Notes: a model not told the origin generated them from the letters alone. Shown: positions 29,355 to 60,031, counted from the first letter of the stretch. The stretch: DNA of 64,000 nt from an uncultured Gammaproteobacteria bacterium (GCA_964590105.1 CAZPYM010000002.1:90697-154696), one strand, 5' to 3'. Numbers and translations: made by a program.

Positions 29355-30227
29355 ATGTCGTCAGTAAATAAACTTATAACTGAATTTCTTTTTGACTTGA
29401 GAAAAAGAAAAAGAACCGAGCGCACGGCGCGCAACTATGATTTGTATTTACGCAGATTTTCAGGCTGGCTTGAGCAAAAGCAGATAGAAAACATGGGGCA
29501 AGTAACGCCGGAACTTATTGCCAAGTATAAAATTTGGCTAAAAAAAATAAAAAACCCGATAAAGAAAATTTATTTGAAAGAAAATACTCAGAATTATCAT
29601 TTGATTGCGCTAAGGGAGTTTATCAAGTATTTGGGAAAGAAAAAAATTTTGTCAATTACCAACCCGAAAATCAAATTGCCAAAAACCCTGAAAGTTAAGG
29701 CCGGCTTTCTCAGTAAAGAAGATGTTCAACTTTTATTGGAATCGCCAATGAAAATTTCACAACCCAGATTGATTCAGCTTCGCGATAGAGCGATATTGGA
29801 ATTGTTTTATTCTACCGGAATTCGAGTTTCTGAGGAGGCAAGCCTGCAGGTTAGCGATATAAATTTTCAAAAACAAGAAATTCTTGTTTGTTCCGGGCAG
29901 AAGAAAGAACGCAGAATTAAATTTTCCAATCAAGCCAAGCATTGGCTGGTTCAATATTTGGAAAGAAGAAAAAATAAAAGTAAATATGTTTTTGTGAGTC
30001 ACGACCGAGCAAAAGCAACAAGAGAAGATGCCGGGCTTAGCGCCAGAAGTTTAGAAAGAATAGTTGAAAAATATGCTAGAGGCGCCGGTATTGACAAAAA
30101 AGTCACTCCGCAGATGCTTCGTCATACATATGCATTTCTTTTGGTCGAAAGAACAGCTGATCCGCGGTCAGTTAAACAAAAACTCGGTCACCTTTCTCTA
30201 AATTCAGCGATGAGATACTTTGATTAA
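29355..30227 (+). CDS. Tyrosine site-specific recombinase (XerC/XerD-like).
   Basis: 290 aa. N-terminal core-binding domain. Catalytic region R..(ELFYSTGIRVSE)...H..LRHTYAF...LGH....T..Y, with the Tyr near the C-terminus. Confidence 0.85.
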   Translation: MSSVNKLITEFLFDLRKRKRTERTARNYDLYLRRFSGWLEQKQIENMGQVTPELIAKYKIWLKKIKNPIKKIYLKENTQNYHLIALREFIKYLGKKKILSITNPKIKLPKTLKVKAGFLSKEDVQLLLESPMKISQPRLIQLRDRAILELFYSTGIRVSEEASLQVSDINFQKQEILVCSGQKKERRIKFSNQAKHWLVQYLERRKNKSKYVFVSHDRAKATREDAGLSARSLERIVEKYARGAGIDKKVTPQMLRHTYAFLLVERTADPRSVKQKLGHLSLNSAMRYFD

Positions 30228-51657: not shown

Positions 51658-52704
51658 TTATTTTTTTTCCATTAATCCTGTGTTTTTCACGCCTAAAATA
51701 AAATATGGATTTTGAGAATCTTTTCTTTGCATAACTACCCAATAAGGTTTATCTAAAATAAAATTCTTGGGTTTTTGGGGAAGCTCTAACCCCATTGTTA
51801 GTGCAATAACGGCTTCATTTTCTACTCTAGCCCCTTTTTCATCCATGTCAAACTTAATATTTTCAAACATTTCAGCAATAAAATAATTTTCAAAACTTTT
51901 ATTAGCTAACTGTTTTCCAAGTAACTCAATATAATCTCGATGGTGATCAAGATGTAATTTGGGAGCTTCAAAATGATCAGAATCACCGATAGTTGCAAGA
52001 CGACCTTGATTATTTTGATTGATTTCCTTAACAATGATTTGCGGATCATTCATATTATAACCCTTTGCCAAAATTAACTGATCACTCTCATCTTTAAGTT
52101 GTAAACTAACGATAAATTTATCATCATTTTCGTATTTAATAATTTTTACATTATTTCTCTGGTCTTTGTCTTTGGCATAAAATCCTTTTACCTTTTGTTC
52201 GTCAAAAGAAACATCTTTTTTTTCAAATACGGTTTTATACTCAACTTCTTTTAGAAAATATGCATAAGAAATGATATCAGTTGGACTTAAACCAAAACTT
52301 AAGTCGGCAAAGCTTTTGCTGGGAAATTTTTCTTTAGATTCTTTGTTGATGGTATTTACGGTTTCTTGCCCATAACCGCTTTTGATGTAATAACTTTTTT
52401 GGTCTAAATCGTTCTTAGTAAATATGGGGTTATTAAATTTTTCTACCATTTCTATGGCAATCTTTTCATCGGTATTAAGTTTTAATTTTTCGTTTAAAAT
52501 ATTATCATTTAATTCGTTCCATGCCAGGTTCATTGCTCCGCCCCAGACATAATTTTCTTTGTAATCACTGCCAAGATAATTGCCGGTAATATTTACTTTG
52601 GTATTCTGAATAACCTGCGGCTGGCTTGGAGTCTGTTGATTAGCGCAACCAGTTAACAAAAATATGATTGCAATAGCCGGTGTAAAAAGTAGTAGTTTTT
52701 TCAT
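51658..52704 (-). CDS. Serpin-like (peptidase inhibitor I4 family) lipoprotein.
   Basis: 348 aa. Signal plus lipobox LLTGC. The C-terminal region ENEAVIALTMGLELPQKPKNFILDKPYWVVMQRKDSQNPYFILGV resembles the serpin hinge/reactive-centre loop and the C-terminal F.F.I......LF.G.V pattern. Hedged; by-eye only. Confidence 0.5.
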   Translation of the reverse strand: MKKLLLFTPAIAIIFLLTGCANQQTPSQPQVIQNTKVNITGNYLGSDYKENYVWGGAMNLAWNELNDNILNEKLKLNTDEKIAIEMVEKFNNPIFTKNDLDQKSYYIKSGYGQETVNTINKESKEKFPSKSFADLSFGLSPTDIISYAYFLKEVEYKTVFEKKDVSFDEQKVKGFYAKDKDQRNNVKIIKYENDDKFIVSLQLKDESDQLILAKGYNMNDPQIIVKEINQNNQGRLATIGDSDHFEAPKLHLDHHRDYIELLGKQLANKSFENYFIAEMFENIKFDMDEKGARVENEAVIALTMGLELPQKPKNFILDKPYWVVMQRKDSQNPYFILGVKNTGLMEKK

Positions 52705-52807
52705 AGTTTTTTATTTTAAAAATTAAAAGTAGTCTCAAAAAAGATAACGTGTAGCTCCGATGAAGGAGGGGCGAGAGTTCAACGTGGTGCGACCGATAGG
52801 GAGCAAG

Positions 52808-53506
52808 TTAAGAAAAGGCTTTTTTAATTTCATCAAAATCAACTTCAATAAACCTGCCAAAAAATTTCGTGATATTTCGTAAATCTCTATCCAGGATTTC
52901 CTCTGCATTAGGATTGGTCCTTTTGTCTAATGCTTGAGGAAAATCAATAACATAAGGCTCGTTATCCCACCAAAGGACATTATATTCTGACAAATCCGCA
53001 TGAACTATGCCAAAATTCCAAAGCACAATCATTGTATCCAATATTTTCTTGAAAGCATTTTTTGCTTCATCTGCCGATAAGTCAACATCGCATAATCTGG
53101 GAGCTGCAATTTCTCGATTGCCTAAAAATTCCATAAATATTGCATCTCCAATATGTAATACGGGTTTTGGAATCTTGGCTCCCGCCGTATATAATTTTTC
53201 AAGTATGAAATATTCTCTTTTTACCCAATTTTGGTGCTTTAATTTTTTGGCAAATTTATTTCCTTTAGCTACAGCTTTTCTGTGAGATGGTTTCTTATAA
53301 TATTTGCCCATCAAGTATTGACCTGTGTTTTTGAATGATCTTTCTTCAGGTTTTTTATAGACTTTCATCGCAACTAATTGATTGTCTAGTATAACTTTAT
53401 AAACAGTTGCTTCTTTCCCAGATTTTATATTAGAAACCATCTTAATTTCATGATTGAGACGTTTTGCTTCATCAATTATATTTTTAACTTCATTGTTTAT
53501 TGTCAT
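52808..53506 (-). CDS. RIO-type serine/threonine protein kinase.
   Basis: 232 aa. GKEATVYK glycine-loop variant, catalytic IVHADLSEYNVLW and metal-binding YVIDFPQA, all typical of RIO1/RIO2. Confidence 0.8.
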   Translation of the reverse strand: MTINNEVKNIIDEAKRLNHEIKMVSNIKSGKEATVYKVILDNQLVAMKVYKKPEERSFKNTGQYLMGKYYKKPSHRKAVAKGNKFAKKLKHQNWVKREYFILEKLYTAGAKIPKPVLHIGDAIFMEFLGNREIAAPRLCDVDLSADEAKNAFKKILDTMIVLWNFGIVHADLSEYNVLWWDNEPYVIDFPQALDKRTNPNAEEILDRDLRNITKFFGRFIEVDFDEIKKAFS

Positions 53507-53800
53507 GTGGTAAAGCTGTGGTTTTAAAAAAGCCTTTTCTTAATTTTGTCCAACGTATCTGACTCTCTGATGTTCCGACGTAGCGTAGCGAAGTACGGAA
53601 TATGGGTGGAGCGACTATTCTATTTGAAAAATCCAATTCATTCGAAAATGAGCGGAACCAGATACTCAGTGTTAGCTGATGTAGCGAAAAACAAACATTC
53701 CTTATTATGAGCCCTATTTTTTTCAAGCCCTTTTGAAATTTTGTCTAATCAAGCAAAGGTGAATAGGCTGGGAGGTTGTGGAATAGCCTTGGAACTTTTA

Positions 53801-54649
53801 TCAATAATTTGTTATAAATTCTAACACATTTTTTGCGGTATCAAACTTTGCTTCATGCAATTCCTTTGCCAGCCTTAACCCCCGATAGTACAAGGCAACT
53901 TTAAATATTGGATCATAGTTTTTTTCGTGTCCGTATAATCGTTTTGCATTCGTCAAAAGTATTTTTGCATCCTCTGTGCGATCAGTATAGCCGATCAACT
54001 GCAGTGCTGTGTAGGCAAAATCATAATATTTTAATGACCAACCCGCCCAGCCAGTATCAATCAATAACAATTCGCCGTCATTCAATCTGCCAATATGCCA
54101 TGGCACGATATCATGATGCTGGAATGCCCAGTTACTACCAAACTCACTCATTACACCAATAGCCTGGTCAACAAAGGTTTTTGAAATTAATTCATTTTCA
54201 AGTAAATAGATAGAATTAGTATGGATGTTTTTTTGAAAATTACCTTTTCTAAACATCCAATCATCTTTAATCGTCTGCGGTAGGTCTTTAAATAATATAT
54301 TTCTCATCACCTTTTGCAATTTCATGTATTTATCCAAATAACATTGAATTGGCTCATTGCTACCGCCCAATTCGCCCAACCACACTACCTGTCCTGTTAT
54401 ATCCGAAAACACTATCATTCCATCATCCAAGGTTGTTGGTAGAAACTTAAATCCGCAATCATTTTTCAGAGCAAGATTATGTAAAAATTTTTGGTTATTA
54501 TATTCACGATCGATCATCTTTTTACCGGCGTCAGTCATTGGAGTCTTAATAAAAACTTTTGACGAATCAATTTTTCGACTAGCTAAAACAACCGAATAGT
54601 CGTTAGTTTTCTTAATCGTTGAATTGTAAATATATTTTTCTAATTTCAT
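53801..54649 (-). CDS. Phosphotransferase enzyme family protein (APH/choline-kinase-like fold).
   Basis: HHDIVPWHIGRLNDGELLLIDTGWAG matches the H.D..p.N.....g.....IDwe.a catalytic/Brenner motif. ATG at 54649 is preferred over the TTG at 54664. Confidence 0.7.
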   Translation of the reverse strand: MKLEKYIYNSTIKKTNDYSVVLASRKIDSSKVFIKTPMTDAGKKMIDREYNNQKFLHNLALKNDCGFKFLPTTLDDGMIVFSDITGQVVWLGELGGSNEPIQCYLDKYMKLQKVMRNILFKDLPQTIKDDWMFRKGNFQKNIHTNSIYLLENELISKTFVDQAIGVMSEFGSNWAFQHHDIVPWHIGRLNDGELLLIDTGWAGWSLKYYDFAYTALQLIGYTDRTEDAKILLTNAKRLYGHEKNYDPIFKVALYYRGLRLAKELHEAKFDTAKNVLEFITNY

Positions 54650-54670
54650 ATAAAGTTTTTCCAAATTTCA

Positions 54671-54960
54671 AAAGGGCTTGAAAAAAAATTAATAAAGAGT
54701 TTGTTTTTTGCTATTTCAGCTAACTGGTTTCTATGCGAAAATAGTTCGCCTTTGATACAAAATTGCGCAGTAAAGGCGAAGTTCGGCAATTTGGATGTTA
54801 CTCCGCCACGCGGAAGACTTCATCCAGCGAAGTGATTCCTTTCAGCGCTTTCATCAGTCCGTCCTGGACCATGGTAATCATGCCGTTCTTGACGGCGAAT
54901 TCCTGCATGTCGTATTCAGAAACTTTGCCGCCGAGAATTATTTTTTCAATTTCCTTGGTC
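54671..54960. repeat. Roughly 290-bp direct repeat, copy 1, of the pilB 3' end plus downstream sequence (copy 2 at 55521-55808).
   Basis: AAAAGGGCTT ... AACTGGTTTCTATGCGAAAATA ... TTTTTTCAATTTCCTTGGTC. Roughly 90% identical to 55521-55808, offset about 850 bp. The copies diverge exactly where copy 2 continues into the pilB body. Confidence 0.8.
54790..54960 (-). pseudogene. Truncated duplicate of the pilB/gspE C-terminal coding region (last roughly 55 codons, no start).
   Basis: The reverse strand translates to ...TKEIEKIILGGKVSEYDMQEFAVKNGMITMVQDGLMKALKGITSLDEVFRVAE*, near-identical to the C-terminus of the intact gene at 55646. Confidence 0.7.
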
Positions 54961-54967
54961 GTCTAGC

Positions 54968-54996
54968 TTGACATAGGCCAGAAGATGTGCTATCCT
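54968..54996 (+). promoter_or_regulatory. Sigma70-like promoter (TTGACA-17-TATCCT) created at the repeat junction, for the 55050 gene.
   Basis: TTGACA at 54968-54973 starts 8 nt after repeat copy 1 ends. The -10-like hexamer lies 17 nt downstream. Confidence 0.4.
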
Positions 54997-55049
54997 GATA
55001 AAAGTCAGTAATGGTATTGATAAGTCAAACCTTAACAAAGGAGGAAGTC

Positions 55050-55442
55050 ATGGCAACAGACGGACCAACCCCTGCATCTTGTGATCAAGAGATTTTTCAG
55101 AAAGGCGAGCCCGTGGCCTTTTTGGACGGTAGTTCAAATGCCGTCGAAAATTGGGTTCAAGAAGTCGCCAAAAAGGCAAATGCTCGTGTCGACTGGCATT
55201 ACAGTGGCGGTATCGCTCAGGTCCTTCATTTTGGAGACATGGAAAGCCGCCGGCGTGTTGAAAAAGCAATCGTGAATATGCAGGAAGTCGACAACCCTAG
55301 CGTTATGCGTCGATTAATAGCAGGCTCGCCTGGTTTGTATCGCAAGGGCGTTACAGAAGCACCAAAAGGCGCAGTCGCTGGGTTCATGGATCCGATTTCC
55401 GGCAAGCAAGCCTATATAGTGGTCGACTCAAGCGAGGATTAG
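55050..55442 (+). CDS. Hypothetical small protein (130 aa), GC-rich, lying between the pilB 3' direct repeats.
   Basis: AAAGGAGGAAG RBS. MATDGPTPASCDQEIFQKGEPVAFLDGSSNAVENW... No motif recognised. Visibly GC-rich against AT-rich flanks. Confidence 0.45.
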   Translation: MATDGPTPASCDQEIFQKGEPVAFLDGSSNAVENWVQEVAKKANARVDWHYSGGIAQVLHFGDMESRRRVEKAIVNMQEVDNPSVMRRLIAGSPGLYRKGVTEAPKGAVAGFMDPISGKQAYIVVDSSED

Positions 55443-55645
55443 TTTACGTATTTTGCGCTCCACTGAATACCGCCAATATACCACAAAGGTTGAGGCGGTT
55501 TTTTTATTTAAAAAATTGAAAAAGGGCTTTTTAAAAAATAAATAATTATTTATTTTTTCTTTTTTACGGAACTGGTTTCTATGCGAAAATATTTCGCTTT
55601 AGCCGGAAAGTCTGGTAACAAAGGCGAAGTTCGGCAATTTGGATG

Positions 55646-57436
55646 TTACTCCGCCACGCGGAAAACTTCATCCAGTGAAGTGATTCCTTTCAGCGCTTTC
55701 ATCAGTCCGTCCTGAACCATGGTGATCATGCCGTTCTTGATGGCGAATTCCTGCATGTCGTATTCAGAAACTTTGCCGCTCAGAATTATTTTTTCAATTT
55801 CCTTGGTCATGATCATAATTTCATAAATGCCGATCCGGCCCTTGTAGCCGATGTTGTGGCAAACTTCACAGCCGGGGCTTTTGAAAAATTTCATATTTGC
55901 CAGATCCGGTCGGTCAGGATGGCCTTCGGGTATTGCTTCTAATATTTTTTTGGCTTTTTCCAGTTTTTCCGGTTCCACTTCTGCTTCCTGGCGGCATTTT
56001 TCACACAGCCGGCGGACTAGCCTCTGTCCCATGATTGCATTAAGAGCCGGCGCCATTAAAAATGGTTGGACTCCCATGGCCAGAAATCTGGGAATTGCTC
56101 CGGCCGCGCTATTTGTATGAATAGTGGATATTACCAAGTGGCCGGTAAGCGCCGCGTTGATAGCCACGTCAGCGGTTTCAAGGTCGCGAAGCTCGCCGAC
56201 CATAACAACATCAGGATCCTGACGCAGGATTGAGCGCAGACCATCGGCGAAAGAATAACCTTTGCTATGATCGATTTGGCTTTGGTTGATTCCTTCAAGT
56301 TTATACTCAACAGGATCTTCGAGCGTGATGACTTTAACTCCTTCAACATTTAATTTATTTAAAATCGCGTACAAAGTGGTTGTTTTACCGGAACCGGTCG
56401 GGCCGGTGGTGACAATCATGCCGTTCGGCCGTTCGGCTTGTTCTTTTAGATTGGCAAATGATTTGCCGATTAAACCAAGATCTTCGAAGCTCAGGCCGAC
56501 AGTGCTGGATTTGAGCAAACGCATAACCACGCTCTCTCCCCAGGTGGTCGGTAGTGTGGAAACACGGACATCGATTTTTTCTTTTGTCAGTGAAATTGTA
56601 AAACGCCCGTCCTGCGGCTTGTCAGTAATATTAATTTTCAAACCAGATAATAATTTAACTCTGGAAATAACTTTTGACCAGCTATCTTTGTCAATCGAGG
56701 CGGTATCATGCAAAATTCCGTCAATGCGGAATCTGACTTTTACGTTTTTATCTTCAGCTTCAATATGGATGTCTGACGACCCGGCCTGAATTGAAGCTGC
56801 AATAATCAGCGTAACCATTTCAGTCATGTTTACTTTTTTAATATGAGCATCCAGCGCCTTTAGATCAGTGGCAATTTTTTTGAATTCTTCTAGCTCTTCT
56901 TCCTTGATCTCAACACCGGCAACCGGTTTTTTGTATTTTGGCAGTTTGGCGTAAATGGCCAGCGCTTTGGCCAAATTTCTTTCAGAAATTAAATATATTT
57001 CCGTGTGGGCGCGCAAAGATTCTTCTAGACTGTGCTGAATTTTTTCAATTTCCGGATTTTCTGGCTCAGTGGTGGCCAGGCGCAGTTGCTCGCCAGTATT
57101 GACGAAGCAGACGATTTTTTGTTCTTGGCAAACATTTTGCGGAATGGTTTGTAGAGCTTCGGCGCTTATTGGGAATTCTGTAAAATCAATGTAGGGGAGA
57201 CCCAAGCCTTGCGCATTGGCTTTTATTTTTCCTTCATTTTCATTAATTGTTATTTGTTCCAGCTTGTCGACAAGCTTTTTCGCCACCGGAATATCGTCGG
57301 TTAGAGAGCCTTTTTTGGTTTTGGGAGCAGTTGACTGGCGGTCGTCAGACGCCTGAGACGCAGCTTGCTTGCCCGTAAGGCTGGTTTTGCCTTTGGCAGT
57401 CAGGAGGTCTTCAATTGAGGAGGTTGCTTTGACCAT
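55646..57436 (-). CDS. pilB: Type II/IV secretion or type IV pilus assembly ATPase (GspE/PilB family).
   Basis: 596 aa. N-terminal GSPII_E_N-like domain, Walker A TGPTGSGKTTTLYA, Asp/His boxes and the C-terminal CxxC...CxxC zinc motif (CEKCRQE...CEVCHNIGYKGR). Confidence 0.95.
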   Translation of the reverse strand: MVKATSSIEDLLTAKGKTSLTGKQAASQASDDRQSTAPKTKKGSLTDDIPVAKKLVDKLEQITINENEGKIKANAQGLGLPYIDFTEFPISAEALQTIPQNVCQEQKIVCFVNTGEQLRLATTEPENPEIEKIQHSLEESLRAHTEIYLISERNLAKALAIYAKLPKYKKPVAGVEIKEEELEEFKKIATDLKALDAHIKKVNMTEMVTLIIAASIQAGSSDIHIEAEDKNVKVRFRIDGILHDTASIDKDSWSKVISRVKLLSGLKINITDKPQDGRFTISLTKEKIDVRVSTLPTTWGESVVMRLLKSSTVGLSFEDLGLIGKSFANLKEQAERPNGMIVTTGPTGSGKTTTLYAILNKLNVEGVKVITLEDPVEYKLEGINQSQIDHSKGYSFADGLRSILRQDPDVVMVGELRDLETADVAINAALTGHLVISTIHTNSAAGAIPRFLAMGVQPFLMAPALNAIMGQRLVRRLCEKCRQEAEVEPEKLEKAKKILEAIPEGHPDRPDLANMKFFKSPGCEVCHNIGYKGRIGIYEIMIMTKEIEKIILSGKVSEYDMQEFAIKNGMITMVQDGLMKALKGITSLDEVFRVAE

Positions 57437-59041: not shown

Positions 59042-60031
59042 GTGGAGAGTGATAAAGTGAAATTAATTTTATATTATATGGAATCAATTTTTAAACAAAG
59101 AATTGGTTATAAGGGGGATTTGAAGGAAATTGCAAAAGATATTTGTAGAGATTTTAGTTTTGGGCATTTTGTGAATTGTAAAACAGTTCTCATAGGTTAT
59201 GAAGATTTTAACTTCTTTTTAGAAACAACAGAGGGCAAATTTTTCGTAAAAATATTTTCGAATGAAAGAACGCTTGATGATTGCAAACGAAACGTTGAAG
59301 TAATCGTAAAAGCATTGGAAGCCGGCGTTTCTGCTCCGGGGTTACACAAATCACCACAGGGATATTTACATCTTCTGGAGATTGATCAATCAATATTAAG
59401 GATTTGCGTCATGAATTTTATTGATGGGGAAGATTTTTTTACTTCTGGGGCAAAAATTACCCGAGAAGATATGCTTTCATTGGCACGCCAAGCGTCTTTG
59501 ATCAATTTAATAGAAGTTAAACCGCCCAAAATTTATGATCCATGGGCGATTACTAACTTTTCCCTGGAATTTGAAAAGAAGAGCCAATACTTAGAAAAAG
59601 AGGATTTTGATATTATTAAGACACTCGTTGAAAGATTCAATAATTTCAAAATAGAAACATTGCCTTATTGCTTTGTCCATGGGGATATTATTAGAACTAA
59701 TGTAATTAAAGATAAGAATAATAAGATTTGGATCGTGGATTTTTCTGTTTCAAATTACTATCCGCGCATTCAGGAATTGGCAGTGTTGGCTTGCGATATC
59801 TTATTCAATAAGGATAACAAAGAAGAAAGTGAACAAAATTTTAAGGGGGCTTTAGAAGAGTATCAAAAAATAATAAAATTAACCGTAAGAGAAATTGAAG
59901 TTTTACCAAATTATATTAAATTTGCTCATGCCATGCATGTACTATCTGCAATCTATGAGAAGAAGGTTAACGGTAATGGCTCTAACGAAAATGAATATTT
60001 TCTTAGTATTGGAAAAGCTGGATTAAAATAA
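59042..60031 (+). CDS. Phosphotransferase enzyme family protein (APH / homoserine-kinase-II-like).
   Basis: CFVHGDIIRTNVIKDKNNKIWIVDFSVSNY matches the APH catalytic/Brenner motif (H.D....N......IDf). The start is uncertain: GTG at 59042 or ATG at 59078. Confidence 0.7.
   Translation: MESDKVKLILYYMESIFKQRIGYKGDLKEIAKDICRDFSFGHFVNCKTVLIGYEDFNFFLETTEGKFFVKIFSNERTLDDCKRNVEVIVKALEAGVSAPGLHKSPQGYLHLLEIDQSILRICVMNFIDGEDFFTSGAKITREDMLSLARQASLINLIEVKPPKIYDPWAITNFSLEFEKKSQYLEKEDFDIIKTLVERFNNFKIETLPYCFVHGDIIRTNVIKDKNNKIWIVDFSVSNYYPRIQELAVLACDILFNKDNKEESEQNFKGALEEYQKIIKLTVREIEVLPNYIKFAHAMHVLSAIYEKKVNGNGSNENEYFLSIGKAGLK

Follow-up and report, generated by a model that had tools for sequence, protein, structure and literature searches.

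Nested copies of the pilB 3' end enclose a small gene unit and an older gene block in an uncultivated Patescibacteria genome

We analysed a locus at which the 3' end of pilB is present as two direct repeats with a small gene, which we call ORF130, between them. The locus lies in a 64,000-nucleotide stretch of DNA (CAZPYM010000002.1:90697-154696, hereafter the window), and L numbers denote the contigs and loci compared with it. pilB encodes a type IV pilus / type II secretion ATPase of 596 amino acids (aa) on the minus strand (55646-57436; Pfam T2SSE, 1.5e-123, and MshEN). The gene is intact, and its final 54 codons, its stop codon and 135 nt downstream fall in the right repeat copy (55513-55808, minus strand). 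The left copy (54663-54960, minus strand) holds the same 54 codons and stop (54798-54960) with an in-frame TAG just upstream and no start codon, and 51 of 53 residues of this fragment match PilB. The preliminary description of this DNA had taken the right copy as the genuine 3' end and the left as a start-less pseudogene, and the sequence bears this out. A public gene call in the dead tail (L001 350-460) is a 36-aa open reading frame (ORF) that starts at an internal ATG (54798-54908, minus strand); it has no visible ribosome-binding site upstream, and a weak promoter-like site lies nearby on the minus strand (54965-54937). The closest pilB relatives (51-72% identical at the protein level) are all from Patescibacteria, namely Kuenenbacteria, Falkowbacteria and Parcubacteria, and the host is an uncultivated ultra-small bacterium of this group.

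Repeat search and alignment delimited the two copies. They are in direct orientation and are 87.6% identical over 298 nt with 2 gaps (E ~1e-102; BLAST, independent contigs versus window), close to the roughly 90% reported beforehand; the repeat search resolved a gapless 256-nt core at 89% (54705-54960 versus 55553-55808) and a 46-nt extension at 76% in the outer block (54663-54708 versus 55513-55558). The right limit, ...CCTTGGTC(G/A)T, falls at 54960 and 55808 in a MAFFT alignment. The pilB coding segments (54798-54960 versus 55646-55808) are 95.7% identical, and past the stop codon homology extends another 135 nt with falling identity. This part comprises an intergenic segment that is 80.8% identical between the copies (B1 in the right copy, 55573-55645; B1' in the left, 54725-54797) and an arm (A-right, 55513-55572, ending CGGAAC; A-left, 54663-54724, ending AGCTAAC). 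The longest run without a mismatch between the two copies is 44 nt.

Nine independent metagenome contigs match the window at 99.8-100% over one or both copies, and four of them, which derive from different samples, cross both copies at 100% (L001, 54449-55894, and L186-L188, which reach several kb to each side). Since independently assembled contigs are identical across the repeat structure, an assembly artefact, a concern raised in the preliminary description, is ruled out. A further 17 contigs from at least 10 samples are all 100% identical to the window, and none of the 17 lacks the cassette or the larger island described below. In a comparison of 42814-57057 with L185-L199 (JGI, ENA, Logan), every contig agreed with the window at 100% along stretches of up to 8 kb. 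An exact scan for variants among metagenome contigs with a shared 24-mer yielded nothing, and look-ups with two genes of the region, k287 and a 203-aa gene (both below), gave identical arrangements only. The arrangement is real and fixed, and with all recovered contigs identical, the samples contain what is in effect one clonal population. Recombination between the copies would yield an intact pilB with S-to-G and I-to-V changes only, which leaves room for the excision or copy-number change that had been suggested, but no sign of ongoing excision was seen in these contigs.

The DNA between the copies is a plus-strand unit of 552 bp (54961-55512). Its promoter (-35 box TTGACA, 54968-54973; 17-nt spacer; -10 box TATCCT, 54991-54996, with a TG upstream) starts 8 nt beyond the repeat end and is followed by a ribosome-binding site (GGAGG, 55040-55044), ORF130 itself (55050-55442, 130 aa, ATG at 55050) and a terminator hairpin, ACCGCC...GGCGGT with a T-run (55469-55506). 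All the parts listed in the preliminary description were located, and with a promoter, ribosome-binding site and terminator to itself ORF130 forms an independent unit. The gene had also been called GC-rich: this holds for its overall GC content (50.6% versus 41.3% for the window) but not for third codon positions, where its 47% equals the 46% of pilB, so that the overall value reflects its amino-acid content. Searches of Pfam, NCBIfam, PADLOC, PHROGs and PDB sequences returned no match to a family, defence system, phage protein or structure, in agreement with its earlier description as a protein of unknown function. Its AlphaFold model is confident (pLDDT 91), and a Foldseek search of the PDB with this model suggested weak ferredoxin-like, BMC-shell and RRM likenesses only (best E 0.009, TM ~0.4).

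ORF130 has 134 homologues, every one from Patescibacteria metagenomes, with an invariant DWHYSGG motif. Typical members have ordinary and varied neighbourhoods, for example between mfd and dprA, and most (32-76% identical) have neither a repeat nor inverted arms nearby; we rejected the idea that the whole family is cassette-borne. No ORF130 homologue has flanking repeats that duplicate the end of a neighbouring gene, and in none of ~100 loci elsewhere does ORF130 lie beside pilB, nor does any of the 80 related pilB loci carry it near pilB. In the nearest homologues (L100, L103 and L104, 84-86% identical) a pair of inverted arms flanks the gene, and the TTGACA-17-TAT(C/A)NT promoter and the terminator are kept. 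The elements there follow one order: end box, helix, hairpin 1, TGGGYGGAG, 5' arm, gene, 3' arm, CGGAACC, helix and end box. The entire gene with its promoter and terminator thus sits within one hairpin (L100:620-1400, L103:37-740, L104:100-830; inverted arms of 28-55 nt). In L101 and L102 (79% identical) a complete structured element lies 3' of the gene, with short inverted repeats on both sides. Five contigs with a viral classification, several of great length (L180-L184, IMG/VR, 36-407 kb), carry more distant homologues (30-46% identical). In a Kuenenbacteria contig (L090:4550-5017), the ORF130 homologue and a 70-aa ORF next to it are each preceded by a copy of a 106-nt direct repeat (84%), which could be a shared promoter or leader.

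The two long pilB tails do not differ in the way expected of a gene and its decaying duplicate. In the coding part 7 of 163 nt differ, five synonymously and two by conservative non-synonymous changes (S/G and I/V), which gives a non-synonymous to synonymous rate ratio (dN/dS) of ~0.11; under neutrality ~79% of changes would be non-synonymous, and two or fewer of seven has a binomial probability of 0.006. Divergence is 4.3% in the coding part versus 19% and 24% in the adjoining non-coding parts (Fisher p = 1.6e-5). Since a dead copy decaying beside a live one would not give this contrast, decay of a duplicate is disfavoured, and the pattern of substitutions marks the two tails as alleles that diverged in working pilB genes of separate lineages. 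Such allele-like divergence would mean that one tail came in with foreign DNA as a replacement, and the 135 nt of homology beyond the stop codon fit orthologous flanks from a related genome. The duplication of the target proposed in the preliminary description is not upheld by copies that differ like alleles, with 4% divergence inside the gene and 19-24% outside it, one of the tails being by this evidence imported.

The pilB tail occurs a third time in the window. A remnant on the minus strand (50452-50487), found by tblastn and a six-frame motif scan, reads ...ACTTCGGGGGACGAAGTATTCAGAGTTAGCGAATAA and is translated as TSGDEVFRVSE-stop, which covers at least the last 27 nt of pilB. The six-frame scan gave exactly three pilB-tail motif matches in the 64 kb, namely the working tail (copy 1), the left copy (copy 2) and this remnant (copy 3), and sensitive blastn revealed no further long copy at the island's far end. 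The two long copies (1 and 2) terminate in RVAE-stop; the pilB genes of relatives end in ...EVFRVSE-stop, with nucleotides near-identical to the remnant. Since it shares the ending of the relatives, the remnant is most likely the native pilB tail.

A conserved 203-aa gene (49814-50425, minus strand) begins 26 nt beyond the remnant and marks the far edge of the insertion. It matches L007 on the same strand (blastx, 62.6% over 174 aa), where its orthologue begins ~20 nt after the pilB stop. Downstream of pilB, relatives hold homologues of this gene and of 48994-49440 (TsaE) and 47918-49009 (TsaD), and the gene divergent from and upstream of pilB is conserved too. Because relatives carry these genes downstream of pilB, with the 203-aa gene right after it in L007, 50426-55645 (5.2 kb) is extra DNA in the window's lineage. 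Judged by these comparisons, 50488-55645 is a two-layer insertion within the pilB tail, with the ORF130 unit as the inner layer and an older outer layer (50488-54797, minus strand) that is missing downstream of pilB in 80 related genomes. None of these 80 genomes has a second pilB tail or any insertion in the pilB tail, so the possibility, raised beforehand, that relatives carry the same arrangement is not borne out. No mosaic signal was seen along PilB in comparison with the relatives, which are too distant. The preliminary description had treated the inner layer only; the third remnant closes the 5.2-kb two-layer insertion.

The joints of the inner layer suggest how it arose. In the ORF130 homologues the 5' arm has the inner end TTTTTCAATTTTCGTGG, which abuts the -35 box there. 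The window's ORF130 retains the 3' arm only (A-right, 55513-55572, which accompanies the gene also in L100 and L104), and on the 5' side pilB codons replace the arm. At this junction lies a microhomology, TTTTTCAATTTCCTTGG (54942-54958, and also 55790-55806 in intact pilB), that matches the inner end of the 5' arm. When the arm, taken either from the relatives or as deduced from the window's own 3' arm, was aligned with all 1791 nt of pilB, the best match was 55790-55806, at the repeat end, where 15 of the 17 positions agree and 11 nt are exact. At the other joint A-right ends in CGGAAC and continues with TGGTTTC... and the downstream region of pilB, where relatives instead go on with CAGATAC...GTGTTAG, and the left copy changes cargo at the identical base (...AGCTAAC/TGGTTTC). 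The arm is not a generic intergenic motif, a reading we rejected because AAAAGGGCTT occurs only at the three arm copies within the 64 kb.

We consider that the repeat pair may be a recombination scar, left when DNA of a related strain entered through one homologous and one ectopic, microhomology-guided crossover, and we give this reading a probability of about one half. The ancestor would have had a pilB ending in ...EVFRVSE-stop with the 203-aa gene directly next to it. Foreign DNA would then have entered the pilB tail twice, each time bringing a pilB tail of its own and displacing the earlier tail outward, so that copy 3 (50452-50487) would be the oldest, copy 2 (54798-54960) intermediate and copy 1 the working tail; since each insert would have carried its own tail, the gene stayed intact. 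In the latest event, the incoming segment would have come from a related strain whose pilB was closely followed by the ORF130 unit in convergent orientation. One crossover would have been ordinary homologous recombination within pilB, and the other an ectopic exchange between the inner end of the promoter-side inverted-repeat arm and codons 541-547 of pilB, which match it by chance over 11-17 nt. Because the ectopic crossover would lie inside rather than beyond pilB, the resident tail and 135 nt downstream would have been retained to the left of the insert. Two crossovers with related-strain DNA would thus explain why the resident tail was kept, why the divergence is allele-like and why the 5' arm was lost. 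Homology-facilitated illegitimate recombination, for example following DNA uptake, would be expected to give this outcome. In what order the events came, how the donor was arranged, and that recombination rather than a dedicated integrase acted, we infer from the present sequence.

Homology-facilitated illegitimate recombination in naturally transformable bacteria was reportedly treated by de Vries and Wackernagel in 2002. The locus would resemble its products in having a long anchor (pilB), a microhomology joint (11 nt exact, 15/17) and foreign cargo between them, and the joint lies 4-6 nt past the match if the donor flank is modelled on L100 and L104. The textbook process replaces or deletes recipient DNA, whereas here the ectopic joint would lie inside the anchor gene, the resident tail is kept as a repeat and the donor is deduced. 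The term itself is used in PMC5312590 and PMC8116780.

Several points weigh against this history. The joint is not perfectly clean, since four to six more bases of pilB type, reading TC(G/A)T, and then five further bases, CTAGC, stand between the microhomology and TTGACA. Neither a donor-type contig (pilB, B1 and a complete ORF130 element) nor a recipient without the cassette was found in the contigs searched. Copy 3 is far shorter (27-36 nt), so that the older event requires a separate junction. The natural competence of the organism is an assumption, and the argument from selection hangs on seven substitutions and could be mimicked by gene conversion confined to the coding part. Finally, a single crossover by an 848-bp circle gives an identical product that the present sequence cannot separate from two crossovers.

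The earlier interpretation is partly supported: the small gene is an inserted unit complete in itself, the left copy is a dead pilB tail, and recombination at the pilB 3' end placed the unit there, but the duplication step and the expectation of excision find no support. The repeat pair is a new version of a well-known type of scar, and the more unusual material is its context. If the scar reading holds, the pair would offer a clean and datable case of the entry of an accessory gene into a reduced genome without the breaking of an important gene, by way of a spare gene end, and the pilB tail would have been struck at least two times.

The scar reading has to be weighed against site-specific elements, two in tandem, that target the pilB 3' end and supply a surrogate tail in the manner of e14 and phage 21 at icd, with an integrase that has since been lost or that acts in trans, such as a Xer-like enzyme linked to the structured repeats described below. 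In Escherichia coli e14 and phage 21 likewise insert into the 3' end of an essential-type gene, supply a replacement tail and leave the old tail as a pseudogene, and recombination between the tails would likewise give a chimeric but intact gene. The architecture of icd-e14-icdC, where the insert separates an intact gene from a C-terminal pseudogene whose differences are mostly synonymous (PMC13626634; Hill et al. 1989, cited there), is shared here, the 3' end of the target gene standing as direct repeats, one intact and one a fragment, around the insert. Three nested pilB tails, an older layer with structured repeats that resemble recombination sites, and the joining of different cargo at one point in both copies (...AAC/TGGTTTC) would also suit such elements. 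However, an ORF survey, a profile search and tblastn with a Xer-like recombinase found no recombinase or transposase gene in 50488-55645, so that the 5.2 kb lack the integrase that such an element should carry. The tails are unequal in length (163 nt plus a 135-nt flank versus 27-36 nt), copy 2 starting at codon -54 and the start of copy 3 falling between about codons -12 and -9, which indicates that the crossover point was not fixed, and no identical short core stands at all junctions. The homology fades far beyond the stop codon, unlike a short att core; the insert is only 552 bp; no excision variants were seen; and none of the 80 related genomes has an insertion at the pilB tail. With these differences we regard tandem site-specific insertion as unlikely, though it keeps appreciable weight. 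Tandem genomic islands at the 3' ends of tRNA and tmRNA genes offer a similar likeness, in that the target end is restored serially, older partial copies are moved outward and direct partial repeats result; here the target is protein-coding, there are no integrases and the repeat lengths are unequal. The locus differs further from a transposon or insertion sequence, whose target-site duplication is short (2-14 bp) and identical where that found here spans 298 nt at 87.6%, and the insert has neither terminal inverted repeats nor a transposase.

Somewhat less likely again is a Campbell-type integration, in which an 848-bp circle made up of the ORF130 unit and a 298-bp pilB-tail segment would have entered by one crossover with the resident tail. 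The circle would have arisen by a deletion in a related genome between two direct TTTTTCAATTT... microhomologies. Both copies share two end points, as expected if a circle carries one homology segment, and the arm and its pilB match would be direct repeats ~850 bp apart in the proposed donor. Against this, an extra step is required, namely formation of the circle and then its transfer, and no contig contains a circle junction or a tandem multimer; as stated above, the sequence at hand does not distinguish this product from that of two crossovers.

A third alternative draws on structured repeats in the older layer. One such repeat, which resembles an attC site, lies between the kinase-like gene k287 and a RIO kinase gene (53546-53686, plus strand), with end boxes GTCCAAC...GTTAGCT and a three-way junction with ATGGGTGGAG. 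It scores 34.5 bits (E 5e-7) with covariance model R1 and 55.7 bits with R2, a model whose training alignment includes this copy. A shortened repeat (CGTAACGTTCGCATATATCTGAT ... ATATGGGCGGAG ... GTTAGGC) lies between the genes for a PHP-domain protein and a serpin-like lipoprotein (51522-51600, plus strand) and scores 18 bits (E 0.013) with R1 and 33.6 bits with R2. These two are the copies that the model detects in the window; they belong to the older layer and share one polarity relative to the genes. In 0.93 Mb of Patescibacteria loci used as controls the model detected none. Against Rfam, only tRNAs exceeded the threshold in the window, and nothing significant was found in 53300-55900, L094, L095, L100, L101, L103 or L104.

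The element, of ~125 nt, was modelled from eight copies in L094 and L095, and compensatory change was seen in 15 of 37 pairs of this alignment. Across 17 distinct copies drawn from five lineages, standard pairs form in 92% of cells versus 30-50% with slid partners, and changes on both sides occur in 24 of 37 pairs, a number attained in 0 of 500 shuffles, although this alignment was fitted to the model and is thereby biased toward the structure. The ends are attC-type boxes, RYYYAAC...GTTRRRY (for example GCCTAAC...GTTAGGC), and the structured sites are co-oriented, as in integrons. Arrays of the element occur in L094:298-4406, L095:693-4061 and L122:3961-6298. In L094, L095 and L109, six to seven copies on one strand stand between small genes of the opposite strand, including HicA, and the arrays adjoin an ORF130 homologue and a 270-aa tyrosine recombinase. 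L094 and L095 have the recombinase side in common and differ wholly in content past a breakpoint that lies within an element. In L122 the recombinase, of 278 aa, is directed away from a row of ORFs, and four of these, including an ORF130 homologue, are each followed by one element.

The arrays invite comparison with chromosomal integrons and with clusters of attC sites lacking integrases (CALINs), a comparison that bears on the setting of the repeat pair and not on the pair itself. They too have ~125-nt structured repeats with AAC...GTT boxes between co-oriented genes and a strain-variable content, and in L094 and L122 the repeats lie beside a tyrosine recombinase whose top scores are to XerA and integron-integrase models. 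However, IntI is defined by an additional domain close to patch III (Messier and Roy 2001, cited in PMC9668308), and the 270-278-aa recombinases lack it: the L094 enzyme (270 aa) aligns with model positions 1-178 of TIGR02249 and 253-327 of PRK15417, the middle being missing. No such recombinase lies beside the window's locus. The three-way junction and the enclosure of a whole gene in one hairpin are further differences, as may be the placing of the observed breakpoints, off G/TT. The k287 unit starts with TTAGCT and its own repeat has the complementary AGCTAAC, but the L094/L095 breakpoint lies inside the repeat and the ORF130 joints lie off the boxes. On these comparisons the arrays appear to be an integron-like arrangement that, by its integrase, falls outside the integron family. 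A description of such arrays in Patescibacteria was not found in the literature searched, in which the key integron surveys do not mention the phylum. The sole tyrosine-recombinase-like match in the window (29667-30218, 28% identical to the array-associated enzyme) lies 25 kb off, beside tRNA-Arg genes, and is probably a housekeeping Xer.

Integron-like capture would have a Xer-like recombinase that acts on these repeats place the ORF130 unit downstream of pilB, the duplicated tail being a by-product. In L122, L100, L103, L104 and L101, ORF130 homologues are cassettes in, or inside, these repeats; the two repeats of the older layer show the polarity of an array; and the cargo switch at ...AAC/TGG adjoins an 8-nt inverted piece of a structured repeat. 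We nevertheless think it improbable as an account of the pair, since the AAC/GTT box is absent at the promoter-side joint, the AAC/TGG joint sits in the helix-forming part of the repeat and not in its end box, integron-type insertion does not duplicate flanking DNA, and no such recombinase lies near the locus; the sole strain-to-strain breakpoint examined (L094 versus L095) is also off the end box. A local tandem copy of the pilB tail that then decayed, or an artefact of assembly, is hardly credible, since apart from two similar sequences 850 bp apart nothing supports it, and the synonymous bias, the uneven coding and non-coding divergence, the unrelated DNA between the copies (which has homologues elsewhere) and the nine independent contigs over one or both copies, four across both at 100%, all speak against it.

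A broader proposal is that Patescibacteria possess a new integron-like form of gene capture with a short Xer-type recombinase, ~125-nt three-way-junction elements and genes enclosed in hairpins, of which the ORF130 unit and the pilB-tail block would be products and the point ...AAC/TGGTTTC downstream of pilB the insertion platform in this lineage. We advance this only speculatively, and it is more likely wrong than right by a wide measure. If the array system does serve to capture genes, evolution of the integron type would reach into a large and little-understood bacterial branch, and the system would provide a minimal pair of recombinase and site. Genes of the pdif modules of Acinetobacter plasmids are bracketed by inverted XerC/D sites. 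Similarly, k287, and ORF130 in L100, L103 and L104, lie between inverted repeats with Xer-site-like outer ends, and a Xer-like recombinase is associated; the differences are that the arms here are 60-90 nt long and belong to a larger folded element, the arrays lie on chromosomes and a dif-type 11-6-11 site is not established. We rejected a dif-type (11-6-11) reading of the conserved CGGAACCAGATAC...GTGTTAG, in which some copies are dif-like and the arms are not consistently palindromic.

The older layer encodes, all on the minus strand, the PHP-domain protein (50551-51432), the serpin-like lipoprotein (51658-52704), the RIO kinase (52808-53506) and the kinase-like k287 (53801-54649). The layer is AT-rich, with 35% GC overall and 31-35% in three genes versus 41.3% for the window, and third-position GC is 25-34% in k287, the RIO kinase and the serpin-like gene versus 46% in pilB, a composition that fits a foreign origin. 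Arm sequence at 54663-54732 has an inverted partner at 53653-53741 (25 nt at 100% and 26 nt at 88%), and the two bracket k287 as an inverted repeat of 70-90 nt with outer ends GTTAGCT and AGCTAAC; none of the inversion or rearrangement models that we tried for these arms reproduces the present order. The window has three kinase-fold genes within a span of 7 kb, namely the RIO kinase, k287 and an APH-type gene (59042-60031). A 28-nt inverted repeat (89%) also surrounds the RIO kinase gene (52800-52827 and 53524-53551), with one arm overlapping the last codons of the gene, and may be of low complexity (A-run, GCC, T-run).

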